DNA of 59,776 nt, the filler included, from Dugesia japonica (Eukaryota): assembly GCA_001938525.1 (NCBI GenBank). It is 4 parts of 4 records of this genome, joined end to end, with 100 filler letters (N's around TTAATTAATTAA, not from the genome) between each part and the next. Parts side by side here need not be neighbours in the genome. Positions count along the whole stretch, not along the records: positions 36,899 to 48,104 come from MQRL01497328.1; 3 more parts are not named here. One strand, written 5' to 3'. This document shows positions 809-52,630 of this stretch, one piece after another (positions within the stretch are counted from its first letter, which is position 1; every line of letters starts with the position of its first letter). Under the pieces are notes generated by a model. That model was not told the DNA's origin. It saw only the letters and a program-made list of their open reading frames with translations, and did no database searches. A program made the position numbers and the translations under genes.

Positions 809-849
809 GTATCCTTTAGATTTGTCAAACATGTAATCATCACATATAG

Positions 850-2238: not shown

Positions 2239-2517
2239 TATTTGTGATTTTAAGATTCTTCATCTGATAAAATTTTATTTTTTGTTTAAATTGGGGAATT
2301 TTCTGAGAATTTTAAATTTCGTCATAATTTAAACTGTTTTTAAAAGGTATCGTGATATTGATGACATACGGTATTGCTCATGTGTGTGCGGAAAGTGTAG
2401 GCGTATATTATCAGATTGTTTTATTTATGTTGTGTGTTTAAATATATTGTAAAAATTTGACTCATATTTTATGGAAATGTTAACGTTTTGTAGGAATTAA
2501 TTTATTTGATTCGATAA

Positions 2518-2522
<5 letters not shown>

Positions 2523-2552
<30 letters not shown>
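2523..2552. repeat. (AT)n microsatellite
   Basis: Direct reading. Confidence 0.95.
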
Positions 2553-2554
<2 letters not shown>

Positions 2555-4287
2555 CTCGTTGAGATCCCTATAAACTTATATCTAGGATAATATGGCCTAA
2601 TGAAACCCTGTGAAGATTTTCATTTAGTGTTAGGTAGTTCGAATGCATTTTTGTAATCATTTACTTCGGGTTTTTACTTCGATACTTGGTTTTATTTTTG
2701 ATACAATTTTAATTTTTTTTCCTAAATCGGTGATTAGCTATAATGACAGAATCTTTAGATTTTAATCGGTAATCATGTCCGAATCAATTTTTAAGGACTT
2801 CAAACATTGTCCATATTTTTTCACTTTTGAAGTTTGGTGGTCAGTGTGATTATTATTACATCAGAAGTTAGCGTATTATTATTTCTATTGGATTTTGAGG
2901 GGATTATCACGTGTACTCAAAAAACCAACCCTTTGAATTATAACGGGTTATCAAAAATTTAAGTAAGATAATTTAGTTATAGGGAGATATGTAATTTATT
3001 ATTGCTTTTATATCTTATTACCAGCATATTTAGTCATTAATATTGTTTACATTCCTTAAGTGTTATCCTTATCACGACTTTTACCCTTTTCCTTGTAGCA
3101 TCATTGGTTATGCATTCTTATTGTTGTTATCACATTCATCAGTGTCATAAACACTGACCATGAATCGTTATCCTTTTCAAGTGTTGTCACTATTGGTTGA
3201 TAATCCATATCTTATTAATTACAGTTTTCATAATTATCAATTGCTAATGCTCAAAATTGTTACCAGTGCTTATTATTAATCGTTATCATGGATAATTATT
3301 AATTATTATCATCATTAATCCTGATCAATATTATTGATTACTGTTAATTATTAAAGACCTTTAGTTACTTATAAAACGTTAATTGTGATAATTACGAATT
3401 TCAAGAAATGAACATTACTAGTAATCATGAGTTAAAGAAATAGTATTAATAATCATAAAAAACGATTACTAAAAATGTATTTAACTTAAAAAACTTGTAT
3501 TGTTAATTAAAATCACTCATTACTTTGAAGTTAAATTTCAACTAATCACACAAATTACCTTACGTTAACAGGAGCCTACAACTAGAACAGAGCACATTCG
3601 TTTTTTATTCCTCATCTGAGCACACCAGCATATATGTTCCACCAAGTGTGAAGTAACTAATCTTCGTACATCTCCAGTAAAGTGTAAAGAATTTGATGCA
3701 CATTCCTCACAAACACTTAGGATGTATACCACTTACACACACTTTTCCGTCTATGACGTTTCTTGACCATAATTTTCTTACCTATTGCTTTTTCCTTATT
3801 GAAGGTTTTCGTTTTCTTGCAAATTAGATTTCTTTTATACAATAAATCATTTAATTGGTAATATTAGAGGTTGGGCCTACATACCATACATTTATAACAC
3901 TTTCTTCTGAAGACAAAATTTATTTGCTAAATCAAATGGTGTACAATAAATAAATGAATTAAATTCTACTTTACAAAATTAAAATAATATTACACAGTAT
4001 TATATTAAAACGTTACAATTTATTAGACAAGAAAATAATTTTACAAAATATAATTGTTTACACAATTATTAATTAATAAAAAAACTATAAACCTTATGTA
4101 CGGCTTTTTTCCAAATATGATTTAATTTCCTAAAAATATAAATACAAATTTCCCTGGGTTTTTCAAAAGTCTGCGTATCTATTATTGAAACAAAAGTTTC
4201 TCAAATTTAAAAACATAAACAATTAAGATTCAATAAATTAAACACTTAAAAAATAAAAACCACTTAAAACATTCAAGAATCATACAT

Positions 4288-5860
4288 TTCCTCACATCCT
4301 CCTTTCAAGAAATTTTTAAGTTTTTCGACATTCCTTGTGAGTTTTTTCCCATCTTGATCGACTAACACATATTGCCTTTCATGAATCTTTTCTAATATCT
4401 TTTAAATTCCTTCATATCTGTTTTTCTTTTTATTTTTCGCTTCAACCTCAACGAAGACATCTTCTCACACATTGAATTTTCTTCTTGTCAGAAACTTGTT
4501 GGAATTCTTAATTTCTGTTTCCTTGCATAATCTACATTGTTCTTTGACTGCCATTTTTCTCGACTGATCCACTAACCACAAACCATTACTAACAGACTTA
4601 CTTGTGTCGTTTTTTGTTTAGTTGCATTTATTGAAAACTAAATTTCTGGCAATAATTTCACCCAATCAATATCCCTCTATCTTGCATTGTAGCATCCATT
4701 AAGTCTCGCAACGTCCGGAACTGTCGTTCAATCTGCCCATTAGTTTTGTGATGGTAGGGACTCGTCAAATGCCAGGCAATCTTTAACCTTTTTGCAAAAT
4801 CTTTCATTTTCCAAGCTTCGAAAACTCTTCTTCAATGCGATCTAAGTTCTCTAAGACATCCAAATTTCAATATCCATATTCAACATCTACTTTCTATCAA
4901 CCTGAACACAAATACTAGGTCTTTCCTGAAATTTATTATACTCGATCTCCACTTGTTGACATGTTTCCTACACATTTACTGACTCTACACTACCCACCTC
5001 TTCAAATGAGTCTCTGCATATAAATCTGAAAACCTTCTCTTCTACCATATCCGAGTTCTCCTATTTCTCCATACCTCGAGGATATTCGGCAGAACTACCT
5101 TTCAATATATGGTTCCGACTAACTTATTTCCTTCCTTACTCTCTATTTCATCTTCCTCTTGTTAATTCAACTCCTCTTCTAGATAATTCAATTGTTTGCA
5201 TCTATTGCCTCGATTTAATTTATTAGTACTTCTTCATTATACGTCTTTATTAATATAATTATTTTGGTTTCCATTCGTATCATATTTTCTATACTTTTTA
5301 AAAGCGCTATTTATTGCTTAACATTCCCTACTGATATGACCATTCAATTCACATTGAAAACAATAAACTTGCTGTCTACCTATGTACTTTCTGCTGACAC
5401 TTCCATCCTTTCCACACGTCCAACATCTTATCCTTGGACTTAAAATACATTCCCGTCTGAAATGACCTTCTTTATTACATCCCAACATACTAACTTTGGT
5501 TGCCCTTCTATATTATTATTCCGTCGTTCGCTACCATAATTTTGGTTTTCCGAATGTTTTATTTCAAATTCCCGATTTCCTGGTCATCTCATTTCTAAAG
5601 ATTGATTGAATATTCTACTACCTTTAAGCACCTTTGCAAAACTCATAAAATTATCCAAATCCCCATGGACTATTACTTTATCTAATAGTTTTAGTATCTC
5701 TTTGATCTCTTCTACTCTCTGAACTTTACACAATACTACTTCTTTCTCAACCCTTTTATTTTTTTGCACAATGTACCAAGAGTTTTGTTGTTAACTTTTC
5801 TCTCGTGAACTCTTATTTTTGAGAATAACCTTGTTAGATGATAGTACACCTTTGGTCATT
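4288..5860 (-). mobile_element. Internally deleted Ty3/Gypsy remnant (gag zinc knuckles + integrase C-half + PPT)
   Basis: Minus strand: degenerate zinc knuckles near 5400-5490 (NKEGHFRREC, RCWTCGK), integrase SPYHHKTNGQIERQFRTLRDLM near 4690-4765, polypurine tract gaaaggagga followed by TGT near 4286-4300. Confidence 0.8.
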
Positions 5861-6659
5861 ATTTTGAAGGAAAAAATAAGTAAAAATATCAAACTGACAA
5901 GTAAATAAATTATCAAGATGACAAATATTACCTGTCGTTATAATTTATTATTAAAGTATTATTTATTATTTAAGCAAGGTAATTAATTAACAGAATTCAA
6001 CAATAACACTAATTATTTACAAACAATTACTTAAAATTGCACAACTTTAATAGTCTTTAATAATAGTAATATAGTCTTTAAATCTAATTAACAATTACCA
6101 ACGATAAAGTACTCCAATAGTAATCGAATTTTCCGATATAAATGATAACTGTAATGATATTAATAACAGAAATTTTCGTAGGATCTTCTCAATCGTCGGA
6201 TACAAATAATATCAACAATAATAATAATGTTAGGGTCGTAAGCTAGGCTTACATAATTATATTTTAATAGAAAATAGTTATTGATGATATTTATTTTAAT
6301 AAATGAAGGCTATTTATATTAAATATATTAACTTTAGAATAATTTTAATTATTATTAAATATAAACTTAACTATTATTTTAATTACTAAATTATTACATG
6401 AAAAACATTATTTAATTAAGAAGTGCAAAGAAAATTATTACCTATTATTATTTATATTAAGTCTGGTAAATTAAAATTACCAGTTGTTCTTTTACATTAA
6501 TTCTGATAAATTGAAATTACGATATATGTTTGTTTATATCAATTCTGGTAACATTACCAGTAGTTTATTTATATTTCATTCTGGTAAAATTACCAGTTAT
6601 TTATTATATTTACAGTCAATTCATGTAAAGTGACCTTTATTACCATTTATAATTTGGTA

Positions 6660-8400
6660 TAAATACTGCAATCTACTCAATGTATTTGCGTTTCTACGTC
6701 GTATACCTTTTCTGTATTCCAACTTGATGTCTCAACTACTAAGAAAGTTGATCCAAGTTTGGAAATGTCCTGTTATTGGTTTCTTTGTATTAAACATAAA
6801 GATGATAGCCTTGTGGTCTGCTCTCAGCGTGAATCATCTGTAATATAAGTAATGCTTAACATGTAAGCAGAAAAAATAAATTGCCAGTAACTCCTTTCTT
6901 GTTGTAAAATACTCTATTTTATGTTTTGACATTGTATATGATCCATAAGCCATTAGCCTTTCTCTACAGCGCTCATCTTTCTGTGATAAGACTGTGCCCA
7001 TTGTGCTGAAACTCACATCTCTCCACATACCAGGAAATTACAACACTGGTAATGTAGTTAATTCTGTCTTCATACTTTCAAAGACTTCCGACAATTCTGT
7101 GGATCACGCCAGTTTCGTATTTTCCGGGTCACTACATAGTTTTTCTAGTTCCCTAGCTTTCATCGAGTAGTCTTTAATAAATTTCTTATAATAATTACAT
7201 ATGCTTAAGAAGCTGCGTAATTTTTTTATGCATTTCAATTCGGCAAACGATTTATTGGCATCAATGTTGATTGGATCAGTTTGGAACTCCTTCTCACTAA
7301 TTATGTGACCCAAGAATTTTACTTTTCTTTTCATCAAGATACGTTTTTCAGGATTAATTCTCAATCTCTCTTCCACGATCCTGTCAAGAATATTCTCTAT
7401 TGCACTGTAATGCTCCTCTTTGGTCTTTGAAAACATCAATATATTGTCAAGATATACCATCGTTTCTTGTATTCCTTTCGTCTCTTTTACTATCATTTCC
7501 TGGAATGTCCCTGGTGCTGCTGCTATTCCGAATGGTATCCTCGTGAAACACTATTGTTCTTGTTTTTATGGAAAATGCCGTTTTTTCTTAAGATTTATTT
7601 TCAAGCTCCACTTGATAATATGCATTCCCCAAGTCTATGGCACTTAAAGATATCGCTTCGCTACGCACATCCAACATTTCCTCAATGTTTGGCATCAAAA
7701 TGCCTGCCTTTCCTTGATCACATTTAGCTTCCAGAAATCTAAGCATAACCTTATATCTTCGTTTTTCTACACGCACACCAGAGGCGGGTTCTACAGGGAG
7801 TTACATTTCCGTATTATACCGTTGTCGAATAAATTCTAGAAAGCTTCATTTATTTATTCCTCTAAATTCATAGAATGTCTATATGGTTTTACGTTGATTG
7901 GCCCTACTGTTGTGATTATTTTGTGTTTTATCAGATGTGTATTACCTATGTCATATCTGTCTGCCATAAATTCCTCTCCCATTTTCTTCCTTTAAACGTA
8001 AATCTCCTCCCCATTCAATGGAAGTGTTCACTTTCTTCCAGTGTTTTTCCACACTTGTCTGTCATATTTTGCCTCTAAATTAAATATGTAGCTGTCTTCC
8101 TCGATCTTTTCTTCTTTGTGGGTTAGTATAAAACCAACTTTATTTAAAAAGTCTATCCCCGCTATCATCTCTAGGAGTACATTTTTATATATTATAAAAG
8201 TTATCTGTTTTATGATGTCGCCAAGTCGTACCTCCAAAATTACTTTTCCTATTATCTCCAACGTGCTATTATTCACACAACGTAATTTCACCTCAACCTT
8301 CTCCGATTGTTTCTTCCCTGCATTTTTGAGTTCACATCTTCAGTCAACGCGTCTGTTCCTCTGCTTGCACCTCTGCTTTCTCGATTCCTTCTTTTTTCTG
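6660..8400 (-). mobile_element. Ty3/Gypsy pol pseudogene (protease region, RT, RNase H)
   Basis: ORF fragments AIDLGNAYYQV, VYLDNILMFS (YxDD site decayed), KVKFLGHIIS, LRSFL, KELLAIYFF; many stops and frameshifts. Confidence 0.92.
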
Positions 8401-10935: not shown

Positions 10936-13900
10936 AGTAGACACATAGTGGCCCACTGCAAAACTTGAATCCCATGGGAGAGGCTGGTATTGCGCCAAAA
11001 TTTTCTGGTGGGTACTTTTTTTTCTAAGATTTTTGGGATCAAATTTTTTTGATCGGATCAGTTTTTTGATCCTGTTAGTGTGTATAGAAATTTTTTAAAA
11101 AATTTTTTTGTGTTTCGGTTGCGAAGGGATTTAATTTAAAGTAGGTTGAGTTGGTATGTGTGTAATAGTGGAAATAGACTCGAAAGGGGTGTGGAGATCT
11201 TAGAAATAGTTTTTTGAGTGTTTTTATGGGATGGGTGAGGTGGAAATAAAATACTGTCTATACTTTCTCTAATGGACTTATGTGGTAGAATGGATGGTTT
11301 GGTCTACAAGGGATGATAGCGCATTGGCACAATCATATGAGTTATCGTGGGTTGATTTTTGAGTGTTAACAGGTTTTTTTGTGGTAAAAGGATTTTGGTG
11401 GGTGATGTGTAGGTGGGTGATGCCGTCGATTGTGCCAAAATTTCGGATTTTTAGTGCTTGAATTTGATTGGTTTTTTTGTAAGTAGTATATAAGGTGTTT
11501 AAAAGACTTTTTGGGTGGGCAAAGTGGTATGGGAGAAAGAGAATTAATTATCGGTGATTTTAAAATTTAATTGAAATTTTTCTGTGGGGTGGGTATGACG
11601 TAATCATTCTTTGACAAAAGTTGATTTTAATATAATCTGGTACAATTAATAAAAATATTAATTGAAATATTGATTTTTTGAAATAGATGTATTTTTTTAG
11701 AAGACTTTATATTTATGTAAATGATGAGGCGGTCTCAAAATTTTGCATGGGATCAGGGAGTCTCACTATTTTTCATGGGATGGGACAGTCTTGATAAAGT
11801 GGATTTTAACTAAAATTGATTAATTTGTTTTAAATGATGATTTTAATTAAAAATGATTAATTTGTTTAAAATGATGTTTTATGTAAAATAAATGATTTTT
11901 TAGCAGGCTTGGTAATCTGGAAGGAATGAAGCAGTCTCGATATTTTAATAAAAGATTGGGACAGTCTAAAATTCCCTATTGCATACATATTGTATCCCTA
12001 TTGGATTTATTAAAATTTCTAGGCACCTGTTGCTGTATTGAATTCATAATGCATACCTATTGCATTTATTTTAATTTCCAGGCACGTGTTGCTATATTGC
12101 ATTCATATTGCATCCCTATTGCATTCATTAATAATAAACATTGGAGTAGTTTTTGTATCTTGTAGTAGATGGGACAATCTTGATATTTTTGCAAGAGATT
12201 GGCCAGTATTCATTTTTTTTGAAGTCTTGATATATATGTATGATATTAGACTGTATTGATTTTTTTTGAAGTCTTAATATTTTTGTATGATTTCTTTCAA
12301 GAGATAGATCAGTATGGATTTCTTTTAAAAAGTCTCGATATTTACGTATGATATTAAGCAGTCTTGATATTTTTGAGATTGTACTGTCTTGATATTATTG
12401 CGAAGATATTGGACAGTCTTTATATGTTATGGGCAGTCTAAAATTTAAATAAGTTAGTTAAAATTAATTAAATTTAATTAACATGATAAAATATTCAAAT
12501 TAGGAATTTTCTTTACAAAATGATAAAAACAGACCTTTTTTCATAAAAACATAATAGCTAGGTAATTTTCAATAAAAAAGATATGTGCTATGACATATTT
12601 TCATAAAACCATATTAGTTGTGAAATTTTTCATAAAAAACATGTTAGTAGTGACATTTTTTATGAGGAAATGTCACTACTAATGTTTTTTATGTTTTTAT
12701 ATGTTTTTATCATTTTGTAAAGAAATGTTTTGATTTTAATATTTTATCATGTAAGTATTTAAAAGACTCTCCTCTTTCAATATTTTATCATTTTAATTTA
12801 ATTTAATTAATTTTAGTTAATTAATTTTAATTAACTTATTTAAATTTTAGACTGCCCAGGACATATACAAAAATATCAAGACTGTCAAATATCTTTGAAA
12901 AATATCAAGTCTGCCCAATATCGTACATAAATATCAAGACTTCAAAAAAAGTCAATATAAAAAAAATATAAAGACTGCCCCAATGTTTTTTATTTATGAA
13001 TTCAATATAAATTTAATATGGATGCAATACAGCAACACGTATCTGGGAATTTTAATAAATGCAATAGACATTTAATATAAATGCAACACATCAACACGTG
13101 CCTGGAAAATTTTAGACTGCCCTAATCTCTTACAAAAATATCAAGTCTGTTCAAAAAAAAATTTTTCAAAAAATCAATTAATATTTTAATTAATTTAGCC
13201 GGATTTTATTAAAGTCAACTTTTTTCAAAAAATGATTACGTAACATCCACTTCACAGAGAAATTTCAATTAAATCTTACAAAAATCCGATAATTAATTCT
13301 TTTTCAACCCATACCACTTTGCCCACCCAAAAATAATTATTTTAACATCTTTATACTACTTACAAACTTTAACCAATCAAATTAAAACACTAAAAATCAC
13401 ACATTCTAGCACAATCGACTACATTCATATTTCCCATAACATTACCTTTCCAACAAAACATTACCCACCAAAATCCATTTACCACCATTTACCATTAACA
13501 CTCAAAAATCAACCCACGATAACTCATATGATTGTGCCAATACGCTATCATCCCTTGTAGACCAAACCATCAATCATACCACATATGTCCATCAGAGAAA
13601 GTACAGACAGTATTTTATTTCCAACACACCCATATCATAAAAACCCTGAGAAAATTAAAATCAATACCTACACAACACTATCGAGTGCACAAGCACATTT
13701 GCACTTGCCTACTTGCACACACACCAACTCAACTTGACCTACTTTAAATTAACACACACAACTTTCTAAACACTTTAAAAAAAATTTTAAAAAATTCCAT
13801 ACAAACAGGATCAAAAAATCCTGATCTCATCAAAAAAATATGATCCGATCAAAAAACTTTTAATCCTAAAAATCTTCGAAAAAAACTAGCACAAAATATG

Positions 13901-15608: not shown

Positions 15609-16694
15609 TAGGCAGATTCCATTAAAATTAAAAACTTCACATTTATTTATTAAATACTTTTAAGTTCAACTTTCGAGTAAACAACAGTCATCAACCAGCC
15701 ATATTTATGTCATTTGAGGCTATAATGTAAAGTCCAAACGCCTTTTCATACAATCTAACAAATAGTCAGACATCGGATTTCTTAAATAAATTTTAGTTTC
15801 AAAAATTTCGTTATCTTTTTATTCTGTTAATCACTTCTTTTGAATGTTCCTCGTGTCACACTACAATATTTAGGGTTTGTATTTTCAAAATATCTTTTTA
15901 TGTATAGGATTTGACAGTTTTATATAATATTATTGTTATTCACTGTAAAGTTATCTATAGAATAGGTAGTTTAATTATCAAATTTGAAATACTTTTTATT
16001 TTTACTTAATTATTGAAAATAAGAAAATGTAAATTATTTTCAAAGTATTTTAAATTGATACTTTTTACATACCTGGGAAATTTAATAGCTGTTTACAATA
16101 AACCTGCTTAAATACTAGTATTTTATCGGTTATCATTTTATTATCCATCAATGTTGATGTCACACTTATCAAAATTGTTAAAACTAATAGTCTACAATAA
16201 AATCCGATAACAAAANNNNNNNNNNNNNNNNNNNNNNNNNNNNNNNNNNNNNNNNNNNNNNNNNNTAGGCAGATTCCATTAAAATTAAAAACTTCACATT
16301 TATTTATTAAATACTTTTAAGTTCAACTTTCGAGTAAACAACAGTCATCAACCAGCCATATTTATGTCATTTGAGGCTATAATGTAAAGTCCAAACGCCT
16401 TTTCATACAATCTAACAAATAGTCAGACATCGGATTTCTTAAATAAATTTTAGTTTCAAAAATTTCGTTATCTTTTTATTCTGTTAATCACTTCTTTTGA
16501 ATGTTCCTCGTGTCACACTACAATATTTAGGGTTTGTATTTTCAAAATATCTTTTTATGTATAGGATTTGACAGTTTTATATAATATTATTGTTATTCAC
16601 TGTAAAGTTATCTATAGAATATCCATCAATGTTGATGTCACACTTATCAAAATTGTTAAAACTAATAGTCTACAATAAAATCCGATAACAAAAT
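15609..16694. repeat. Near-identical duplication across N gap (probable assembly or haplotype artefact)
   Basis: 15609-15963 recurs at about 16266-16620 and 16142-16215 recurs at 16621-16694; the second copy lacks about 180 bp. Confidence 0.85.
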
Positions 16695-22519: not shown

Positions 22520-22619
22520 NNNNNNNNNNNNNNNNNNNNNNNNNNNNNNNNNNNNNNNNNNNNTTAATTAATTAANNNNNNNNNNNNNNNNNNNNNNNNN
22601 NNNNNNNNNNNNNNNNNNN
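22520..22619. other. Artificial contig spacer
   Basis: 44 N + TTAATTAATTAA + 44 N; stops in all six frames. Confidence 0.9.
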
Positions 22620-22651
22620 AATAATTTATATATTTATTATTAATTGTTTAG

Positions 22652-23034
22652 ATACAGACGAAACGAAGAATAAAATATATTTAATATGTACAATAGAGTG
22701 TCTTAATTTCCCGTTGACACCGAAGATGTTACCTGGTCATTTAATCACAATAAGTGCCCCGTTTTCACTTGAAAATAGGCTACCGTGTGATGTTAGATTT
22801 GCAATGAAATCGGAACGTAATGACAATGGTTCGATAATTAAAAATGAAGCTCTTGTACGACCTTCGTGTCAATGTACAGTTTTAACCACTAGTATGAAAC
22901 AATCAACATATTTTTCCGTTTATCTTGATTCATTTCCTCGTTGTGATCCTTTATTGATTCATGGTAATGTCAAACTCAGCCATACAGTTTTAATACGTTT
23001 ATATGATGAACAGAATCGGCTTTTGGAATTAGAG
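22652..23034 (+). CDS. VPS13D: VPS13D internal exon (VAB/SHR-binding region)
   Basis: AG/GT bounded; PGHLITISAPFSLENRLPCDV...IRLYDEQNRLLELE resembles VPS13D PGHTIYLLP..NLLPCEL; ends phase 0. Confidence 0.85.
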
Positions 23035-23422
23035 GTAGTATTTATTATAATAAACTATATGTAAAAGTTTTATTTTATGCAAAACCAATTCCAGTATTCA
23101 AATTAATATAACATTTCAAATGATTCACGACTTTTTTGAAATCAACATTACCGCATATATCTTTTACTAATAAATTATTTTCTAAATGTACTCGTGTTTA
23201 AAAATCTTCATTTTTGGCAGTTTTTGAATATTGCGATATAAATCAATTTCATTTGTTGATTAATTTTAATATTAAAATTATATTTTTTAAATTTTCAAAT
23301 ATAAGGTGTTTCAAAAAAAACTGCGCTTTTTTACAAAATCTAAAATATTCAAAGTATCCAACAGAACTATATNNNNNNNNNNNNNNNNNNNNNNNNNNNN
23401 NNNNNNNNNNNNNNNNNNNNNN

Positions 23423-23495
<73 letters not shown>
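23423..23495. repeat. (TA)n(GA)n compound microsatellite in intron
   Basis: Direct reading. Confidence 0.95.
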
Positions 23496-23498
<3 letters not shown>

Positions 23499-23582
23499 AT
23501 TAGTTATTGTAAATATTTAAAATTCGAAGATAACTTTATTTTACTTATTTGATACTCTATTAGTCAAATTTAAATATTTCAG

Positions 23583-24081
23583 GTAAAAGTTGAATCTAGA
23601 CCATCCGGCCCGGTATCAGTTATTATTTATGCACTTTACTGGATTGTTAATCGTACATCCTTACCACTTGTTTATGCACAGTCCGGAGAAACAGATACTC
23701 TGGCAGCAGGTCATGTACCAGAAAATGAAGAGGCTTGCTCATCAATGTCATTTCCATTCAACTTTTCAAATAAGGATGATAGCTTTACTTTTCGAGTTCG
23801 ATTGGGATCGAAAGCCCAATTATCAAATCTGGATTGTTTCAAACCGTTATGGAGTGATAAAATATCTCTTGAAAAAGTAGGAACAACAACCCTTCAGTTG
23901 CGAGCTGCATCTTTGAATCAGCATCGACCGCATTTATTATATAATATTGGGCTGGAAATCAGACCTGGTAGAGGTAAACACAGCAATACTAAAATGGTAA
24001 TACTTACTGCGAGGTATTTGTTGGATAATAAAAGTTCATATCCTCTATATTTTGCCCAATACAACTGTACAGATCAACAAA
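23583..24081 (+). CDS. VPS13D: VPS13D internal exon
   Basis: IYALYWIVNRTSLPLVYAQ...AAGH...LYNIGLEIRPGRGK...ARYLLDNKSS; phase 0 start, phase 1 end, AG/GT. Confidence 0.92.
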
Positions 24082-24589
24082 GTAATTTTACTATTAATTA
24101 TTTATTGTTTTTTTGAAAGACCTAATTTCTTTTTTTTAGTATTTTTACTGTATGAGTATTGCTAATTTATTTCAATGTCTGCTTTCTCAGTAATTTTAAG
24201 GATGAAATAAAGTAGCAGTAGTTATCGAAATGCTAAAAATATTGTATTTCATTGAATTCCAAATCATTTGATCGATGGAAATGATACATTTAATTTAAAT
24301 TCTANNNNNNNNNNNNNNNNNNNNNNNNNNNNNNNNNNNNNNNNNNNNNNNNNNNNNNNNNNNNNNNNNNNNNNNNNNNNNTATTTTCGTATAAATGCTG
24401 TACAAAAACTATTTAATAGATCAATTATAAGAAAAAAACCAATTTACGTTATTGAAGTACAAGTTTTTTGATGTACAATAATTTGAACAAAGTTTTTAAA
24501 AATTATTTTTTAGCAATCTTCCCATTTGGGGCAGATACATAATATAATTATTTCTGTTATATTCTACTTATATTCTACATTATATTTAT

Positions 24590-25795
24590 TTTTTTACAAG
24601 ATACCTAATCTTTTGATATTCGCCACTAAACTGATTAACCAAAACATTACCATTTAAATGATTTCTAATAATTTCCAATGAGATGCTTGCTTGGATTGAA
24701 GCGCACCACTGAATCTTGAATTCCATTTTTTCATGACTTTATTTGTAATTCTTCGGCTAGAGTGTAATAGCATTTCCAAATATTTACTTCAAACCTTGGA
24801 GTAACTCAAATCTATTCATAATTTTGTCTTTTAGTTCCTATATAATGTCAACTTAAAAACTCAATAAAATTATTAATGGTTTAATGACAACTGTTTGAAA
24901 GCTTCAACGAAATCTTCTTCAGGTATAAATGGTAAAGTCATATATACAATAGTATATTTTATTGAAGTGTCTTCAGGACTTCTATATTGCGAAAAATATT
25001 TNCTACAGGTAAAATAAGTAGCCTTGAACTCTTCTATTTGAAAAGCAGTTTCTAATTTCGGCCATTACAGTCGATTAGAAATCAATCATTATAGATTGAA
25101 AAGAAAGTATAATACTTAATCATAATAAAATCTCTTTTAAATGAACATAGCATTTGTCTTGTGGAAACATAAACACGTGGAAAGGTGTATCCAAACATGT
25201 CAGTATAACTCATATAGATCTGAAAAAATATATTCGAACAGTGTTAAAGTCCCCTCTGCATAAAGCTTAGCACTTCGGGTTAAATGTTGCAATCCAGTGT
25301 TCGGATTAAAAATAAATATTCTATTTGAATCAGATTACTACTGAATAATATTTCAAAAATTCACCACCTGAAAAATTTCAATTATATGGTGCAGAGTTAA
25401 CACAATTGATTAAATTAGTATGAAAACTAGGTCTGGTGTTATTTTGAACTGTGCCGATGGAGTTTTAATCAATGAACTTCTTTCACTAAATTTTTAACAG
25501 CGTGTCAACTTCGCTTATATTTCTTAATTCTTCCCGTATAATGGAACTTGGGCGCGGTATTTTAATTTAACTTTTCTTTTATATTTTCAGTTGCAGGTCT
25601 AGCCATAATAAATGCGCGATGACCTGAATGAGAGTGTTTGCTGATACTAAAAACAGTTATATAATTTTCAACATCATAGTTTGTGACTAATCTGGGGTTA
25701 CATGCATCTCTATAACTATAAGTCCAATACGTTATTGTTATTTGAATTTTCTTTGAATTCAAATAGTATACAAATTCACCATTTGTAAGCATATA
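24590..25795 (-). mobile_element. Decayed Mutator-like (MULE) transposase with FLYWCH-like N-terminus, in VPS13D intron
   Basis: Minus strand FVYYLN...YWTYSYRDACNPRL...HSHSGH, then a decayed DGTF region (LYAEGT) and MIDF. Confidence 0.7.
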
Positions 25796-26123
25796 TACAC
25801 TTTGATTTAATTATATGCATTAAATTAAAATATAAATCGAATAGAATTTTATTATAATTATTTAATTTAAGTTTTATACGAAAAGTCTAGGTATGGCATA
25901 AAGTTACTTTTCAAATCAATATAAAATGTTATATNNNNNNNNNNNNNNNNNNNNNNNNNNNNNNNTGATAAGCCTAGATTTTCAAAAATTATATTGTGAC
26001 TTGGATTAAAATGATTTTTTTAGAATTAAATGTAAAATAAGTTTAAGAATGAATAAGCCAATGAATTATTCTTTATTTTATAAAACTATTGTTTTAAAAT
26101 AGGAAAATGTCTATTATTTTTAG

Positions 26124-26292
26124 CTAATCCAATTATGGCCTTGCCAGGATCTTTTCTTACATTTCATTGGCCTAGAGATGATTTGGATCAATTATTAACT
26201 GTACAAAAACTTGATTTAAACCATCAAATTATTTCCAAAGTTTCTGGGGGCTTTCAGATCGATCAATGTACTTCATTTCATGTTTATTTACG
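26124..26292 (+). CDS. VPS13D: VPS13D internal exon
   Basis: LPGSFLTFHWPRDDLDQLL...SGGFQID..SFHVYLR; phase-compatible with neighbours; an alternative in-frame acceptor lies 21 nt upstream. Confidence 0.9.
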
Positions 26293-26351
26293 GTATTATT
26301 ATTTAGTAATTTTTTTTTNNNNNNNATGTTTGAACGTTTTTTTTTCTACAG

Positions 26352-26610
26352 AGGAATCAACAGCAATCCGCCAAGTCAACTGAGAGTGTCAATAAGTCAT
26401 CGAGAGGCTAGATATAAAGTGGTTTTTACAGATGCTGAAGATTTACCATCTCCATACAAATTAGAAAATTTGACTAATTTACAGGTGTTCTTTTATCAGA
26501 ATGTAGCAGAAGACAGTTCTCGTAAATACTCTGTTCTCCCTCCATGCAGCAGTATACCGTATGCACTTGATGAGCCTACCCTTCCTCCAATTATTACTCT
26601 TTCACTAAAT
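26352..26610 (+). CDS. VPS13D: VPS13D internal exon
   Basis: LRVSISHREARYKVVFTDAEDLPSPYKLEN...PYALDEPTLPPIITL; follows a 59-nt intron. Confidence 0.92.
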
Positions 26611-28723
26611 GTAAATCACTAAATTTTGATTTAACAGTAAAAATTTCTAATTACTAATTTTTTTATTTCTCTATTTCTTTTTATTAACAATCATTGACAT
26701 AATAATATGATTATCAAAAAAAATTATGATTATAACAATTGTCAAAGTATTAAGTAAATCAATTTGTTCTGTTGACATTTAAAATAATTTTTATTCACTG
26801 AATTTAATTGAACATTATATTTTTTATCGTTCCAATAGAGTAAATATAAAATAAATATCAAAAATTTATAATTAAATAATGAAAATTTCTTTAATTTTAT
26901 TGATTATTTTGTGAGATAAAAGTAACGCGTTTAAAAAAACTATGTATTCTTTATTTATATATATATATATNNNNNNNNNNNNNNNNNTATATTCTTTATA
27001 TTATAATATTAATATTATAATATAATTAAGATTTATTTTAGAGTAGTCTCAGGCATTGTAATTTTAAAAATCATTATTTTTCTATTAGGCATGAAATTAT
27101 TTAAACACACTACAATAATCTAAAAAACCTAATTTAATTGGAATTTTCGCTATTAATTTCGTGAAGAAAATATATTTATTTTGCTATAATGTAATCAAAA
27201 CTAAATTTAGCATTCCAATTTCTATGTAATAGTTCATGTTCTTATTGATTTTTTGTTTACATCTAAGATTCATCCAATCATTCTTAATTAATTCTGTCAT
27301 ACGATTATCAACAGTACTCTTCCCCCTCATTCTCCCTCGCTCGTTCGCTCAGTTTTTATGTGCCATGTATAACTAACTATATTATTGCCTCGCAACAAGC
27401 TATTTAAAAATCAATAATATAAATATTTTAATTTAATAATTTTTCATAAAACTTTTCTATATATTTTAAAGTCATTCTTAAATAGAGATGACATCTTAGT
27501 ATTTTCATGAAAGAATTAGAAATGTTTATTATTTATCATAGCGTATGAATGAATGTTAGTGCAAATCGACGTAAAATAATATCGATGAATTTGAATTTCA
27601 TAATGATTATTAGCACGATACCATTATCTATAAAATGATGTCTAATAAATTGTAAGTTATTTTTATCCTAATTTTACTTGTCTATCTCTGTTAAACTCTA
27701 AATACTGATTTTCAGTTTGAATTGTCTAACATTTTTGATTTTTTGGTACACAAAGTTATTGAATGAATTAGATAGAAAATGAATTGTGCAAATAATTTTA
27801 GTAATTAATTAATTCGGCTGCTAATATATTTTTTGTGAAAGTTGCCATGGAAATGAAATTAATTTTATTCCCCTATTATGGCTTTGATTTAAATACTTTT
27901 TTAAAAGAACTTTTAAAAAAATATAAGCTGCAAAATGTTTTAAAACTGCTTTTATAAATTACGTTATGATTATGCATTATTATTTAAAATATTCTGTTAT
28001 TTAACACGTTGTAACCCGCAATGTTAAAATTTTTTTTCTCCCAGGACCACTATTTTTTTGTTTATATAAAATAAATAAATAAGATTTCACTATTATTTTA
28101 CTCAGCGTATTACCATAATTTGAACCAAAACTAAATAAAATAAGTAAGTGGAATTCCCAAGTATAACAAGCAACCTGTGGTACATTAAATACGATTTTCT
28201 CACGTGCTAATTAAGTATTTTTGGTCACTACGCTACCCTTGATCATCTCCTATTAGCATTTCATTGTGTTGTACTACATACANGACTCACAGAGCCCCAT
28301 TGGTAAATATTAATGTGAAACAACTTTGATTCACGTTCTAGAGAAGATAAGATGAGCATTATGAAAATAATTACTCTGCATCGTACGTGATTCACACGGC
28401 ACAACGTCTTAATTTTATCTAATATGTTAAAGATTTTAAGTAAAATAAAGTTACATTTTATCTATATCTAAATTTTAATGATTACATCTAGTATCATTAC
28501 ACAAGAGCGTACAACTATATATGTTTTCTTTTACGATTTTACCCATTATTATGGACTCACGTGAAACTATGTACTTGATTGTGTTTAATTAAACTTTTTT
28601 TAATCTCAAATCCTAATATTAATAACTAAAAAGGTTAATTTATTTATTTAATTTTAATTACTTTTGTAAAATGTTAGACACGAATGAATAAATGTGGCAG
28701 CATTTTGACAATTTTTATTACAG

Positions 28724-37879: not shown

Positions 37880-38032
37880 TTAATTCGATTTGTGTGAAAG
37901 GAATTTTGAATACGCATAATCACTATTCTGTTTTCAGTCAGTATAAAGCTGCTCTCGTTGAATTATTTAATCGAACATTAAGAACAAAGCTTGCAAATAT
38001 TTCACTTATCGCGGTAATAAAGTTTGGATAAG
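37880..38032 (+). pseudogene. Polinton-type retroviral-like integrase fragment
   Basis: [25 protein letters not shown], frameshift, [11 protein letters not shown]; resembles the Polinton KAxxVERFNRTLK..KYFT..W motif. Confidence 0.75.
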
Positions 38033-38486
38033 ACGAAATAGAGGTGATGTTTGTATTTCTATTCTTCACACAACAGGCGATGATCCACAAAGAGGAGAAT
38101 TGCCTTCAGAACGGTGGAATCCTACACAAAACGTCAGAAATATTCTGCTCAGTGTTATTTCCATGTTGAATGAACCGAATATCAATTCAGCCGCGCACGT
38201 GGACGCATCCGTTTCATTCAGAAAATGGCAAGAATCCAATGGAAACGAGAAAAGTTATGAATGCATGGTTAGGCATCTTGTATTTTTGACTAAGGCTGAT
38301 GCTGAAAAAGATAAAGTTTAAGTCCTGACGACACTTGCAGAGTATTGTGGATCAGGAGGTACAAATAATCGAACTTCTGAATTGAGTAATCCGTGTGATT
38401 ATAATGATTATCTTACACCGGATTACGACGATGACGATGATNATGACGATGATGACTTTGAAGAGTTGTATGATGATACAGAATAA
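38033..38486 (+). pseudogene. CDC34: 5'-truncated intronless copy of CDC34/UBE2R ubiquitin-conjugating E2
   Basis: [46 protein letters not shown] (catalytic Cys and acidic loop); in-frame TAA at 38319-38321 inside KV*VLTTLAEYC; acidic tail ends with stop at 38484-38486. Confidence 0.88.
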
Positions 38487-38699
38487 TAGCAACAGTTGAA
38501 AAGAATTTCGTAGTCATTGCTGATTGATTGATTAATTGTGTCTCTGTGTGTGTATAATTGACTGATATTGCCTTATTTAGTGTTGCTTTATTGTTGCTGT
38601 TTCATTATTATTATCTATAATAATAATAATCATTATTATTGTACAAAGCAGACTTTCACAAACTAGAAATGTAGCACGAAAAATCTGGGGAAAATTTAG

Positions 38700-41600
38700 T
38701 GCATTTAGAATATTTGTCTCTGGATTAGCAGGAATTTATGCTATTTGTGTAATTGTGAAAGTGACATTCACTCAATTGTTATCTACATATAGTATATTTA
38801 AAATAGGTGGATGCACGTGGAGACTAATCATTGGGTTGTTTCCATTCTTAGCCAAATTTTTATTGTTCAAACATCACGACGAGATAAAGGTTAAAAATGA
38901 GACAAGGAACAGTAAAGCATACTGTGGTGCGTTTGCAACCGGATAAAAATGACCAATGAAGCGATGACGATGATAATCATAGGGTTGAAACGGCGGCCGA
39001 TGTAACAGTAATGATAATTATTATGGTCGTACCGACAAAAGTGATAATGATGAAAATTTTGATAAGGATATACCTACTAAACATGTATAGATGAAGATGG
39101 ATTTCCAAGATTTTGGAGTAAAGCTAAGAAAAAGACAATGGTAATTCTCAATAATAAACAGAAGAGGCGAGAGGGTATCCTAACTAACTGGGACGGAAAA
39201 ATGAAATATACAGGTCGTGGACCGTATAACTCACTAATCAGTACTATATTCAACCCACTATTGAAAGCAAGTGCTCCAACTGAAAGTTCAATGTTACCGC
39301 CACCAATGTATCCAACTTGAGAATTAGATGAACTAAGAGAACAGATAGATAACTGGGATTTGGAGAAAATCATAGAATATGTGAACAATAAACCAAGATC
39401 TCGAGGTTTAGTAAGCACTATATTTGAAAGACGAACGGGACAAAAATTGCCAGCAAACTATACTCAAGAAGATTTGGCAAAAGGATTTCNNNNNNNNNNN
39501 NNNNNNNNNNNNNNNNNNNNNNNNNNNNNNNNNNNNNNNNNNNNNNNNNNNNNNNNNNNNNNNNNNNNNNNNNNNNNNNNNTTACAAGAAAGAAATGGTA
39601 TGAATAATCAAACAGAACCAAATTTTAATACACAAAGAGAAAACATGTTAGGGATTTCAACATTAATGTCAACTTTTATGGTAAATGTAGAATATGCCCA
39701 CAAGCCAACAATTAAAATCAGAATTAATCGACATGTAGTCTACGCTATGATAGATTCTGGATCAGACAGAGCAATAGTAGAAGCCAATCTACTGAAAAAA
39801 TCAGAAACTGAAAATGTTAATTAAGAACAATAAGACAATACTGCAGCAAATGGAGAAAAATTAGATATCATAGGATATCTAGATTGTAATATAAAATTAT
39901 GTGACCAAGATATAAAACATGAAATAAAAGTCGTGAGGATGTATTATGTATGGATGTATTAAAAAAGCTCAAAGATGTGGTTTTTGATTGCGCCACAGGA
40001 CAACGGGTAAAGTTAACTAGAAAGCGTAAAAAGGAATACAATGAACACTTGGCTTATATCGATAGACAGATCACGATACCTCCTATGGTAAAAACTGTAT
40101 GTACTATCAATACTACACTCAAGCAGAATGGAGAAGTACTGTTTGAGTCAAATCCTCTGTTAATGGAAAGATATTGTATACCTAGAACCTATAGCATCAG
40201 CCAGGTTAGAGAGGGTAGAATTTCAATAAAATTGAGAAATTTAGACATTAGACGGATTACATTGTTTCCAGATACAAATATGAAAGTTATTTATGTACCA
40301 GATGATGAAATAATTGAGAAATCTTCAACATTATCTGTCATAGAGCAACGAGATCCAGATATCGAATACTATGATGCACCGTGTGCGATAGTAAAATTTT
40401 AACTAGAAAAGAAAATATTCTCATAAATATGTTGCTAAGAAAATTTGATCATATTTTCGCTAAACACGAATNTGATCTTGGAATAACAAATATCTTGGAG
40501 CATGAAATTGTGCTCACAACGGATAAACCAATCAAGTTGAGACCGTATCTAATTCCTGAGAAATTGGAAGCAAACGTAGAAAATCAAGTTAAACTGATGT
40601 TAAAATAAAAAATTATCAGTCACCATTCCAATCCCCATTAATAAAATGGCTAAATAATTAATGGCTAAAAAAGATGGAACAGTATGATTATGCAATGATT
40701 ATCGTAAATTAAACAAAGTGACAGTCAAGGAGAGTCATCCTTTACCATTATTGGAAAGGATATTCGATAAATTGAGAAAACCATTATATTACTTCGTAGG
40801 AGATGCACAAAAAGGATTTTATCAAATCGGATGCACTGAGGAAACTAAAAGAATAATAACATAAAGAGTATAATGTTATGCCATTTAGACTCACAGGAGC
40901 TCCGGTGACATTTCAAAGAACCGTGAATAAAATCCTAGAAGATGTACCATTTGCAATGGTATACATTGACGACATATATAATATCTCGGAAAGGAATAAG
41001 ACCTGATCCAGCAAATATAATAAAAGTACAAAAATCTCCTCAACCAAAGAATCCAAAACAATTAGAATTAGCAGGATATTATAGAAATATTATAGTTAAA
41101 TTTGTATGGGGAACTTTACAGTAAAAAGCGTTCGAGACGCTCAAAAATCTATGCCAGTAATAAAGGAGTTGGGGCTGTGTTAGGCCAACTCGATGAAAAC
41201 GGTAATGAATGTGCTATAGCTTATACAAGTAGAGGGCTGAAGTTTTAACTAGTAAAATTATGCTGTAATAGAGTTAGAGACTTTAGCAGTAATATTCGCG
41301 ATTGATAAATATAGACATTATCTTTGGGGTAGAAAGATAATAATCTACACCGACCATAAGCCATTAAAATGGTTGATGAAGCATAAGAAAATTCATCTAG
41401 ATTAATTAGATGGGGATTGAAATTACAGCCATATGATATATATATAATTTACAGAAAAGGAAAAGAGAACTCAAATTCAGATGCATTATCAAGAATGGAT
41501 CAGGATGATGAGCTTGAGGATATTAAAGAAGGAAGATTAGAAGGAACATATTTGCAGATCTTAAAATGTTAAACAACCAAGCCGATGTGATCAAGTAGCA

Positions 41601-44600
41601 AATCGAGAACGAGGAAATTAATCAAATAAAACAGGTTCTAGAAACTGGAATGGTACCAGTTGAATTTGAAAAGTTTTGGTCAAAGAACCACGGAAAATTC
41701 TTTTTAGAAGATGGATTAGTGAAATATCAGGAAGCAACTGATAATGTTTTCATGGTACCAAAAACTCTTAGAGATGCTTTGATGTTACAATATCATGATG
41801 GGCAATTGGGAGGACATCTCTTAGCCAAGAAAACAATTTCTAGACTAAGGCAGAAATAGTTTTGACCGGAAATTCGTCAGGACGTAAAGAAATGGTGTCA
41901 AACATATAAAGTTTGTGCTACCAGACGAAATAAAGGAGCCAAAACAAGGGTACTATTGAAACCAATGCCAGTTCCAACATCACCAATGGAAATTCTAGCG
42001 ATGGATGTGTTGGGACTATTTAAACCTACAAATGATGGAAATGAGTTTATATTAGTAGCCTGTGATTATCTCACAAAATGGCCTGAAGCTTTTCTGATGC
42101 CGGATCATGGCTAGAATCTTTGTGGAACAGATAGTCTTTCGATATGGAGTACCAAGAAAGTTGCTAACCGATAAAGGAAAAGATTTCATGAGTAATTTAT
42201 TAAAAGGAATAAATGAGTATTTTGGAATATTAAAATTGAATACATCTCCATATCATCCTCAGACGGATCGATTAGTCGAAATATTAAATTGAACATTAGC
42301 TCAAATGCTATCATCATATGTCAATTCTGAGCAAACGGAATAGGACATTACATTCCCACATGCTTGTTCGCGTATCGGAACGCAGTACATTCAAGTACAG
42401 GTTATTTGCCGTTTTATTTAATGTATTTGAGAAATAGCAACATGCCGGTGAATCTTGTATTTCAAACATCATTATCGCAGTACTTTGATGAGGGCAATTA
42501 TCTGCTCGAACTAAAAGATAGGATACAAATAGCTTGGTTAAAAGCTAACTTAAGTATTAAATATTCACAAGAAGGAATGAAAGAGGCATATGATAAAAAG
42601 ACTAAACCGCACGAGTTTAGAGTGCAAGATTTATTAATGCTCGAAGGGCATAATAATATAAAAGATTTGTCACCAAAGTTGGTACGATACTACATGGGAC
42701 CTTGTAAGGTATTAATAAAAACAGAAACTAATTTAGTCTTACACCTATACTATTACATGCAAATAGATGCAAAAAATATTATACGAAAGATGTGCAAGTT
42801 AAAAATATAGCGACAAAAGTCAAGGACAAGGCAAAAAGGTCTTCAACAAACACTCAAGAATCTAACAATAGATATCCACTAANNNNNNNNNNNNNNNNNC
42901 AAACATTAATGATTATTGCAATAATAAGTTGTCTTAATATGGTCAGTGCACAGATTGAATTTCAACCCAAAGCAGTACCAATGGAGAAAATAATATTACG
43001 AAGATGGTTCCATAAATTCTCTATAAGATCAACGGTCGAATCGACATTCAACTACCACATAGCGTTTATTTCTGATGGAACAGAAACATATTACAAGATA
43101 GGACATAGAAACAGAGAGGTCAATATCACAAATTTAAAGGCTAACTATACCTATGCTATGCAGTGTTGGTATCAGCAATTCAAATCTGTATATTGGGAGA
43201 CTGTAAGAACCACCGGATGGTATCTTACAACATTGCCAATAAACAAAGTAGTAATATTGTACAAAAATTCATGTCTATTTTTCACAAATGTACATACAGA
43301 GCAGGAGGAAACACAAATCGAGCTTCACTACGGAACATGAAATTCTACAATTCGTTTGAACAAAAAAGTTAATGTCGGGAGATGGTTTTTTGGATATAAA
43401 AAGAAAGATGCATAAACAGCCACATATCTGGTATTCTCTGAAGAAATACAACCAAGCAAGGTTATGATTAGTACGGTTACTAAGAGACCAATTTCCACAA
43501 AATTAAATGCAAACTTCTTGGGAATGGTAACCCCCGTTTACTTGGAAAAACATACCACCTTGGAGATCATCAATGGAGATGGCAGGGAGAGGAAAATAGG
43601 TTTCCAATGCATCAAATTTACAGCAATTATTGCTGTGGAGGTCTTATATTTTGAAAAACCAGTCATTAGGTTAGGCTATGAATGAGCTCACATGGACTTA
43701 TAATGCCAATTTTAATGACATAAAAACACAGAAATCATTTGTGCGTATGTCTCTCACCCTACAACAAGAAAATCGTGTAACGTGTTTTGTGGCTTTTCAC
43801 TATGTTACACTCAAAGAAAATTTAGAATCAGCTAGTTTCAGCCAACGTGCTTAATTTTGACCGTGAACAATGGAAGTACTTGAAGACTCAAAAATCGTGG
43901 GAAATGATGATGAGCTAGGAGACCCTCCTAGTATATCATTACAGTAAGTTGACGAATCTATACAGTAAATAGAAATTTCCCAGGTACCAGAAAAAGAAAT
44001 AGTACCAGAAAAGGAAATATAAAAAGATTCAGGGAAGTTCATTGATAAATTATATCCGAGATGAAGAAACTTCAAATGGCGGCATTAGCCTTACCGGAAA
44101 ATGATAATACTTCATTTTACAGCGAATTTAATGACTTGGACGATTATAAGATTAACGCTTATTGGAAGAAAGAAACTATTTGCGAAGCGCAGTTCAAAGG
44201 AAAAGAAGCTTCAATCCAAGAAATCCTCAAATGATGCTATGATCAGCTCTCCTCAACATCTTGAACACGAGCATGTAGTGCTGTGATCCGTTCGAGCAAT
44301 CTAATGGTCACGGATGAACAATAGACATTTATTTTTTTGTGATTCGATTGTATTTTATTTTATGTGATTCAAACTCTGACATTAGTGCTATTTACAAATA
44401 ATGTATTTTACTAGTTTATTTATTTTTCTGTTTTATTATGTTTCTTTAAAATGTTATAAATTTTCAGTACGAAAATCTTTTAGGGGGGAATATTTGTGAT
44501 GACTGGGAACAGTTTTAGTATAATTAAGTATTCAAGATTAAAATTAAATAATTTTAATATTTTTTGTTTAAAATTATAATGCAATACGATATTAATAAAT

Positions 44601-48317: not shown

Positions 48318-48345
48318 ACAATATGTTGTGCAATTGGTACATGTT

Positions 48346-48728
48346 ATGAAGTAAGTGTTTTTATATTAATGATTTTTTTTAATAGTACTATTCAGATTGA
48401 TCGGATTGTATCAGAGTGGCTTGGATCAGAATGGTTAGGTGTTTATGCGTTAGATAAACTTCCAAAATATATTCCAGTAAAAAATGCCTTAATTGTCAAT
48501 ACTCATACATCAAATCTAGGTGGAGAACATTGGATAGCTGTTTACAACAAACTTGTTCAAATATTGGTATTCGATCCATTAGCATTTTATTATCCATCAA
48601 TTTCGGTATCACACTTATCGAAAATATCAAAGCCAATAGTCTACAATAAAATTCGATATCAAGATACATTTACAACTACATGCGGTCAACATTGTTTATT
48701 ATGGTTGAAAAAACAACATCGTACTTGA
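48346..48728 (+). CDS. Polinton adenain-type (C5-like) cysteine protease, intact; probable 35-nt intron 48351-48385
   Basis: LGVYALDKLP, IVNT, GEHW, VFDPL, YQ....TCGQHC. Spliced start ATG AA|T gives MNTIQID; the unspliced alternative starts at 48369. Confidence 0.88.
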
Positions 48729-51689: not shown

Positions 51690-52630
51690 CCTCACAGGTC
51701 CTCTAACTTTCTTAACTGATTTTTCTAGCACTTTGCTGATCTTTTCTCATTTATACTAGATTTCAACTACTTTTCACAGATTCTTTATCACACCTACTTC
51801 ATTGCTCTCACTCTTCAATGGTATTCTGTCACACTCACTGGCTTTCTTCTACTCCACACTGGTATTCTCTTTCTATCCACTGATTTTTACCCACTACCCA
51901 CTGGTATTCTCTTACTCTCTACTAGTACTCTATTACTCTCTACTGTTCTTCATCCACTTCTCCTGGTATTCTTTACTTCTCCACTGGTCTATTCACACTC
52001 AATACAGGTCTTCTACCATTATACACAGATAATCTCCACTCTCCACTTATATTCACTCAATATTCACTGATCTTCTCTCACTCTTTACTGGTCTTCTCTT
52101 ACTCATACAGGTCTTCTGTCACTATCCTATGCTAATTTCTCACCATCCACTAGTATTATTCAGTATCCTATGGTATTCTCTCACCCTCTACAGATCTTCT
52201 GTCACAATTCACTAGTATTCTCTCACTTTTTACTGATATTCTCTCTCTAAATAGGTCTTCTCTCACTGTCTACTTGTCTTCTCTCACAATCTAGTATTTC
52301 TACCACTGGTATTCTACAAGTATCCACTAATATTCACTCACTCTCTACTGACCTTCTCTCATTATCTACAGGTCTTCCCTCACTATCCACTGGTATTCTT
52401 TCAAACCCCATTAGTCTTCTCTCATTATCCACAGACCTTCTCTCACTATTTACAGATCTTCACTCACTATATATTAATCTTATCCAAATACCAATAATAT
52501 TCTCTCACTATCGACTTGTATTCTCTCACTATCTACCGCTCTTATACTACTACCAATGGTATTTTCACACTATTCACTGGTATTATCTCACTATATACTG
52601 GTAATCTCCAACTCTCTATCTAATATTTCT
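51690..52630. repeat. Degenerate ~19-bp pyrimidine-rich tandem array
   Basis: Recurring ct(a/c)tc(t/c)actggt(a/c)ttctctca. Confidence 0.85.

Follow-up and report, generated by a model that had tools for sequence, protein, structure and literature searches.

The Gypsy element and its surroundings

The window, by which we mean the whole stretch of 59,776 nucleotides from Dugesia japonica that was analysed, is AT-rich eukaryotic DNA with VPS13 exons, and it carries on its plus strand a decayed Gypsy element that runs from about 38,650 to beyond 44,500. The parts of this element follow the Ty3/Gypsy (Metaviridae) order of protease, reverse transcriptase, RNase H and integrase, an order that is intact in two related loci, L007 and L008. 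Relatives came from two sources, namely, a search with the integrase as query, which gave eight proteins among 308 candidates (P numbers), and a lineage-specific integrase motif, which gave 12 metagenome loci (L numbers), ten of them relatives. The remaining two, L005 and L011, did not match the element and were set aside; L005 carries FecR/DUF932. Signal sequences and transmembrane segments (TM) were called by hydropathy (KD). The parts of the element are as follows.

38,653–38,886, plus strand: gB-like (Monjiviricetes-type) fusion glycoprotein, C-terminal end with the TM; 52% identity to L008 residues 627–701 (E 4e-21); PF24664 at E 1.6e-9, above cut-off
38,887–39,701, plus strand: broken linker from the Env TM to the protease, with a 92-N gap; probably the Env tail (PPPMY motif), given the same position in L007 and L008
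39,702–39,935, plus strand: aspartic protease (DSG), broken; tblastn to L007 residues 1015–1092, weak Pfam RVP/Asp_protease match (E ~0.025)
39,923–41,530, plus strand: post-protease domain, reverse transcriptase and RNase H, interrupted by stops and frameshifts; tblastn to L006, L007, L008 and P0007
41,560–42,879, plus strand: integrase, broken, ending in HANRCKK ... RYPL, with a frameshift near 42,740; Pfam Integrase_H2C2 (E 1.2e-6), tblastn and tree
42,900–42,950, plus strand: internal signal-like sequence that continues the frame of the integrase end over a 17-N gap; KD 2.75 over 11 residues, position shared with P0008 and eight of the nine loci extending beyond integrase; putatively cleaved
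42,951–43,244, plus strand: predicted fibronectin type III (FN3) domain with two N-glycosylation sequons; AF2 model, Foldseek, VIA and repeat HMM
43,245–43,499, plus strand: ambiguous stretch with two in-frame stops, in which either a second beta domain begins or the exonuclease ORF has its N-terminal part; conflicting weak matches
43,500–43,820, plus strand: N-terminal remnant of an accessory ISG20-like exonuclease ORF, with a frameshift near 43,660; shuffle test, and bit score against control strands
43,821–44,234, plus strand: broken frames without a significant match, by their position probably the decayed remainder of the exonuclease ORF
44,482–44,490, plus strand: polypurine-tract-like run, followed by TG at 44,495 (presumed start of the 3' LTR); L009 has a similar run where its exonuclease ORF ends

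This copy is dead, with stops and frameshifts and without a TM behind integrase, and it also lacks the ectodomain of the fusion glycoprotein, gag and the 5' LTR. No Pfam gag match was obtained for the window ORFs tested, and the L007 and L008 sequences end on their 5' side before reaching beyond Env. A second LTR to pair with the presumed 3' one was not found in the window, the 5' end being missing from the copy. A fragment of a ubiquitin-conjugating enzyme (37,971–38,663; PF00179, E 1.2e-11) adjoins the element, and since RNA reads and a single-copy contig match this fragment and diverge from the window at 38,663, the 5' break of the element is placed there.

Elsewhere in the window, the VPS13 exons (VPS13_VAB) lie at 22,576–26,622 and exon-like ORFs continue to about 34,600, belonging to a host gene whose introns contain repeats. 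A second decayed Gypsy pol, unrelated to the first, occupies about 4,590–7,550 on the minus strand (RVT_1, E 3e-13). An adenain-like protease at 48,318–48,728 (Peptidase_C5, E 3e-4) suggests a Polinton-like remnant, and there are related 134-nt stretches at 16,080 and 16,558. There are also a large imperfect, foldback-like palindrome (about 11,010–13,890; nested inverted arms, centre near 12,600), a degenerate array of a 21-nt unit (51,835–52,623) and an exact 300-nt duplicate (15,609–15,908 and 16,266–16,565), the last possibly an assembly artefact.

The end of integrase (near 42,880) and the purine tract (44,482–44,490) are separated by 1.6 kb, the spacing given in the original prediction, and this region holds an open frame of 143 codons (42,909–43,340) that starts MIIAIISCLNMVSA and contains NITNLKANYTY and sequons, again as described beforehand; the sequons are two, at residues 72 and 79. 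Neither of the furin-type motifs R-x-[KR]-R and R-x-x-R occurs in this frame between 42,909 and 43,340, and hydropathy reveals no convincing TM after it in the window, so that both absences noted for this copy were borne out. A hydrophobic stretch at 43,596–43,652 (KD 1.65) was rejected as a TM, being only moderately hydrophobic and lying within the exonuclease-like part. What did not survive is the proposal of a third ORF. Read from stop to stop, the frame opens at 42,732 within integrase and passes through HANRCKK and RYPL, motifs of the integrase C terminus, and then through a 17-N gap (42,883–42,899) before reaching the Met, which makes the module the C-terminal part of the Pol polyprotein, continuity over the gap being read from its nominal length and from similar spacing in relatives. 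Because the frame starts inside integrase, the signal-like sequence at 42,900–42,950 is internal; a signal-type sequence is present as proposed, but not as an N-terminal signal peptide. Direct searches with the ORF found no homologue among 71 and among 491 candidates, and neither further searches nor viral-contig scans yielded one. Three matches from one of the homologue searches were repetitive, unrelated proteins and were discarded as repeat artefacts.

To place this copy within its host family, contigs from two runs, X1 (read as DNA) and X4, were compared with the element. The contigs of the two runs span the whole element. Their summed depth in X1 is about 440–3,900, whereas the 5' flank has 14.8, and the ORF, at 3,528–3,826, is as deep as integrase; depth is not to be taken here as copy number. 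Single ORF sites are overlapped by 15–18 distinct contigs. The segment is therefore multi-copy in the host and not unique to this copy. The contigs listed at the first stop codon all differ from the window there, which makes that stop private to this copy, and most contigs are less than 95% alike to the window, implying that the copy is old or a side branch. One contig with a short private deletion collinearly joins 43,393 to 43,481; as one other copy is thus apparently collinear over this interval, the family of the host itself may be TM-less. Two RNA runs placed 77 and 244 reads on 6.6 kb, at a depth of at most about 4 and with no joints, which is too thin for splicing.

The module behind integrase in related elements

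The clearest counterpart is the protein P0008 (45% identical), which reads without a stop from integrase into a signal-like segment and on through three repeats, each about 95 residues long, and a stalk rich in S/T to a TM and a short tail. By tblastn, its residues 469–628 align with window positions 42,747–43,241 in a single frame that takes in HANRCKK, the signal and the FN3 motif. The other seven proteins of the integrase search do not extend so far, with P0009, P0012 and P0013 ending shortly past integrase and the remainder stopping in or just past it.

Nine of the ten related loci extend beyond integrase, L003 ending within it. A signal-like segment is present in eight of these nine, as in P0008, and has been lost in L010, and a TM follows integrase in six loci and P0008. 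In five loci (L004, L006, L007, L008 and L009) no stop interrupts the frame between Pol and the end of the TM and tail, that is, over 400–1143 codons beyond integrase, a span for which composition predicts 33–97 stops and in which the other frames contain 34–142. The order in these five loci and in P0008 is integrase, signal sequence, beta-rich ectodomain, TM and short tail, such that, of the secreted or surface protein originally proposed, it is the surface form that intact relatives show, being TM-anchored. The class I PDZ-binding pattern [ST]-x-[VLIF] closes six of the seven complete tails (P ~6e-8 by composition, for a motif spotted post hoc in related sequences). In the window, L002, L004, L006, L007, L009 and P0008, the signal core contains a Met or has one a short way ahead of it; L008 has none across the 119 residues preceding the core.

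In the integrase tree, the window and nine relatives form a clade, with support of 96/97 in one segment and 82/94 in another. The ectodomains of L002 and L012 are 41% identical, as opposed to 86–95% for their integrases, and dN/dS between L009 and L007 is about 0.32 for the ectodomain and 0.08 for integrase, with dS near saturation. By these sequence comparisons the ectodomain changes faster than integrase yet is constrained between relatives, which answers the call for evidence of purifying selection, at least in the relatives. Open frames, TM and tail motif are moreover kept in elements less than 20% identical over this region. Some loci show additional features: in L006 (2,223–8,882, minus strand) the frame leading from integrase to the signal sequence also encodes ankyrin repeats and a second aspartic protease; in L008 the reverse transcriptase is preceded by two protease stretches; and tandem arrays (64-nt and 12–13-nt units) lie 3' of the coding region in L009 (519–1,228) and L002 (4,428–4,805).

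A gB-like fusogen (Monjiviricetes-type, PF24664) is encoded in the same ORF ahead of the protease in both loci that reach that far, L007 and L008 (E 8e-91 and 6e-84), and its remnant in the window is the TM end alone, at 38,653–38,886. These two loci therefore have the arrangement that marks GAG-ENV-POL gB-type or Burro-like elements, in which a gB-like fusogen precedes Pol and shares its frame. Since this gB-like Env sits upstream of Pol, the module behind integrase is a second glycoprotein rather than a replacement of Env, and the protein in the env position is not the Env of the element.

Downstream of the module, a separate ORF is found in four loci, L006 to L009. In L008 it matches ISG20L2 (E 7e-12; four-way profile, E 6e-14) and shows D-x-E, D and H-x4-D. 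The corresponding ORFs of L006, L007 and L009 lack the first acidic catalytic motif, and hence may be inactive, RNA-binding forms. The window stretch at 43,500–43,820 resembles this ORF at 12.1 bits, compared with at most 4.2 bits among 205 control strands, and none of 1000 shuffles reached the score for both pieces; past 43,850 in the window, exonuclease homology is not significant. The window accordingly retains only the N-terminal part of this ORF, a candidate ISG20/REX4-like DEDDh exonuclease. Part of what had been read as further disrupted frames is thus the remnant of a separate gene. It also follows from the position of this match that the window copy is devoid of stalk, TM and tail, and the junction at which they are missing falls within 43,245–43,499.

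Predicted fold of the ectodomain

Folding of the ORF as a single sequence failed (pLDDT 32.6). With a nine-row alignment, made of the window and eight repeats from relatives, only 7–16% identical to it, AlphaFold (AF2) returned seven strands at a pLDDT of 83.5; given the failure of the single-sequence fold, this confident model leans on those distant rows. The best PDB rows in Foldseek (E 3.6e-4, TM-score 0.64) were monobodies and the FN3 domains of fibronectin and of cytokine receptors, and VIA-align ranked fibronectin first (Z 10.6, rmsd 3.3, 90 aligned). Cytokine-receptor rows tie with those of fibronectin, Dscam and monobodies (Z within about 1), and include IFNGR2, IFNAR2 and IL-22R1; a further fold match, at rank 40, is the soluble IFN-gamma receptor of a poxvirus. 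An HMM built from ten repeat units of relatives, from which the window was left out, has its best match in the whole 60 kb at 43,014–43,184, a score reached by 7 of 2000 shuffles.

Sequence profiles give a fainter signal. The window protein gave no Pfam FN3 match, and the relatives matched weakly (best E 0.0016 for Fn3_Dep-1, 0.062 for fn3). The Atlas fn3 call was 0.90 for the window protein, which is under the recognition threshold, and 0.93 for P0008, with 178 shared features; eight of the ten matches of the repeat profile to PDB sequences are FN3 proteins, each non-significant. The predicted model is nevertheless a seven-strand beta sandwich of about 90 residues that superposes on FN3 domains, and the PDB matches listed are of FN3 type. 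We thus assign to the window ectodomain a predicted FN3-type fold, as first surmised from its sequence. No known fusogen is found among the 50 BFVD structure matches listed.

The closest integrase relatives of the window (L002, L007, L009 and L012) possess, despite this proximity, a second type of ectodomain, with one or two copies of a unit of about 180 residues. This unit does not align with the FN3 repeats (hhalign probability 0.5%) and matched no PDB sequence. Going by these comparisons, it is the slot of the module that is conserved, its ectodomain content having been either swapped or diverged. Moreover, FN3 folds are common to cytokine receptors, and thus the fold by itself does not specify adhesion.

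A candidate attachment protein and its alternatives

An attachment role is likely to judge from the observed layout, which is conserved among relatives and has a gB-like fusogen upstream and an exonuclease gene downstream. We lean, by a little, towards a module that is cut free as a second surface glycoprotein and helps particles or expressing cells to attach, alongside gB-driven fusion. In intact relatives, a single frame encodes fusogen, protease, reverse transcriptase, RNase H, integrase, internal signal, ectodomain (of predicted FN3 type in the window), TM and short tail. The polyprotein would enter the ER at the gB signal and halt at the gB TM, the part from protease to integrase would stay in the cytosol between this TM and the second signal sequence, and re-entry at the latter would thread the polyprotein through the ER twice. 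Cleavage by signal peptidase would then yield a type I membrane protein whose ectodomain is of FN3 type, and integrase would be cut loose by the viral protease close to the RYxLR linker. Through its PDZ-type tail end, the membrane protein might be positioned at a junction or a polarised membrane. The variable ectodomain would bind a host surface, with gB carrying out the fusion.

A more ambitious proposal, which we put forward tentatively and with somewhat less than even confidence, is a two-component entry system in a clade of Gypsy elements. A gB-like fusogen of class III and a host-like glycoprotein for attachment, released on its own, would flank Pol in one polyprotein, supplemented by the ISG20-like exonuclease. 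The attachment protein would consist of FN3 repeats or a swappable alternative, a TM and a PDZ-binding tail, and glycoproteins on either side of Pol may hold Pol at the budding membrane. If true, a retrotransposon would split attachment from fusion as a herpesvirus or paramyxovirus does.

The same polyprotein could instead carry the FN3 protein as an accessory immune or signalling decoy, a host-receptor mimic with no role in entry, to which the ISG20-like exonuclease would be a companion as a second host-interaction gene. The matches to IFNGR2, IFNAR2, IL-22R1 and, at rank 40, the poxvirus receptor point this way, as do the sharp differences between the ectodomains of different elements and the many host-regulation domains of Burro elements (PMC6431247). 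However, the cytokine-receptor rows only tie with fibronectin, Dscam and monobody rows, and equimolar synthesis with Pol and Env, together with the kept TM, would better fit a particle component; we regard the decoy as rather unlikely. As for the suspicion that the ORF is a functionless captured host fragment, or a chance frame unique to this copy, it could draw on the direct ORF searches, which found no sequence homologue, but it is scarcely credible, and indeed refuted, given an ORF depth of 3,528–3,826 that equals that of integrase against 14.8 in the flank, and the persistence of open frames, TM and tail motif in relatives less than 20% identical here.

Two further possibilities are side questions, compatible with either attachment or decoy. 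The host family may have settled on a TM-less, secreted FN3-exonuclease fusion, in which case the window copy would show a rearrangement stably kept in the family instead of decay of its own. The signal, the FN3 domain and the exonuclease-like part do share one frame in the window, contigs span the whole stretch, one of them joining 43,393 to 43,481, and no large-insert joint is seen among the 15 of 63 joints listed (986 loose ends besides). Yet a random deletion stays in frame one third of the time, and an exonuclease in the ER lumen would make little sense, so we deem this unlikely. Production of the module also, or mainly, as a protein of its own, from a spliced or internally started mRNA of a functional third gene as first proposed, would accord with the Met in or near the signal core in the window, five loci and P0008, and with the spliced env of errantiviruses. 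This is improbable in view of the five loci and P0008 without a stop between integrase and module, and of the 119 residues upstream of the signal core in L008 without a Met; the lack of joints in the two RNA runs, at a depth of at most about 4, is a weak test in the same direction.

Comparison with known elements

Env of the Drosophila gypsy and ZAM errantiviruses (F-type, ORF3) is a separate, spliced ORF encoding a furin-cleaved fusogen. The module likewise places a membrane glycoprotein 3' of integrase, but it is in frame with integrase, has no furin motif and has a predicted FN3 fold; neither an ORF3, a furin site nor a fusogen fold was found, in keeping with the claim that it is unlike errantivirus Env. 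GN and GC of Atlas virus are adjacent parts of one viral env. The two glycoproteins described here, in contrast, flank Pol, and the second has a predicted host-type FN3 fold. Common to both cases is a retroelement with two glycoprotein chains, phlebovirus-like GN-GC in this nematode element (PMC9094657).

Closer likenesses exist among planarian elements. The giant Gypsy elements Burro/GYPSM1 encode a single polyprotein in which env follows gag and precedes protease, all in frame, and this env matches mononegavirus fusion proteins of arthropods and fish (Arkhipova and Yushenova, 2019; PMC6431247). The in-frame env before the protease, ankyrin repeats (here in L006) and accessory ORFs are shared, whereas the section describing Burro includes neither a signal-FN3-TM module after integrase nor an exonuclease, and the word 'fibronectin' does not occur in the paper (PMC6431247). 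Burro ORF1, of about 4,900 residues, bears AIR1, MATH, BIR and BCL2 domains in the same source (PMC6431247); none is among the Pfam matches here, where L007 and L008 are cut 5' of Env. GAG-ENV-POL errantiviruses of HSV/gB type are known from Nematoda, Bryozoa and Platyhelminthes, with six families of 1–215 copies listed for Schmidtea mediterranea (Chary and Hayashi, 2026; PMC13524379). They share with our elements the gB-type Env upstream of a Ty3/Gypsy Pol and multi-copy families, but a second glycoprotein is not described, the main text being free of fibronectin, exonuclease and immunoglobulin (PMC13524379); these elements may have the module unannotated. The Juno and Vesta LTR elements of bdelloid rotifers also have an exonuclease ORF (ORF3) 3' of pol; this is of the RNase D-like DEDDy type, unlike the ISG20/ISG20L2-like ORF of L008 (E 7e-12), and 'fibronectin' is absent from that article (Rodriguez et al., 2017; PMC5408684). 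The term is equally absent from PMC8532177.

Overall, a full-text literature search, the scope of which was running text as distinct from figures and Repbase entries, found no retroelement with a post-integrase FN3 membrane protein. Of the undescribed lineage originally suggested, the Env-before-Pol layout is already published, while for the post-integrase glycoprotein no description was found. We conclude that these elements are a gB-type, Env-before-Pol Gypsy clade with a second glycoprotein fused behind integrase, the latter apparently undescribed; by its layout the clade is likened to the Burro and GAG-ENV-POL families, to which it may belong.

Herpesvirus gB requires separate receptor-binding partners. 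Envelopes of gB type are common among invertebrate Gypsy elements (PMC13524379). For the way in which such envelopes find their target cells, a conserved slot for a fast-changing, PDZ-tailed surface protein is a concrete candidate, which can be searched for at once in the published GAG-ENV-POL and Burro elements. For annotation there is also a correction: a stretch with signal and TM behind integrase is not necessarily Env.
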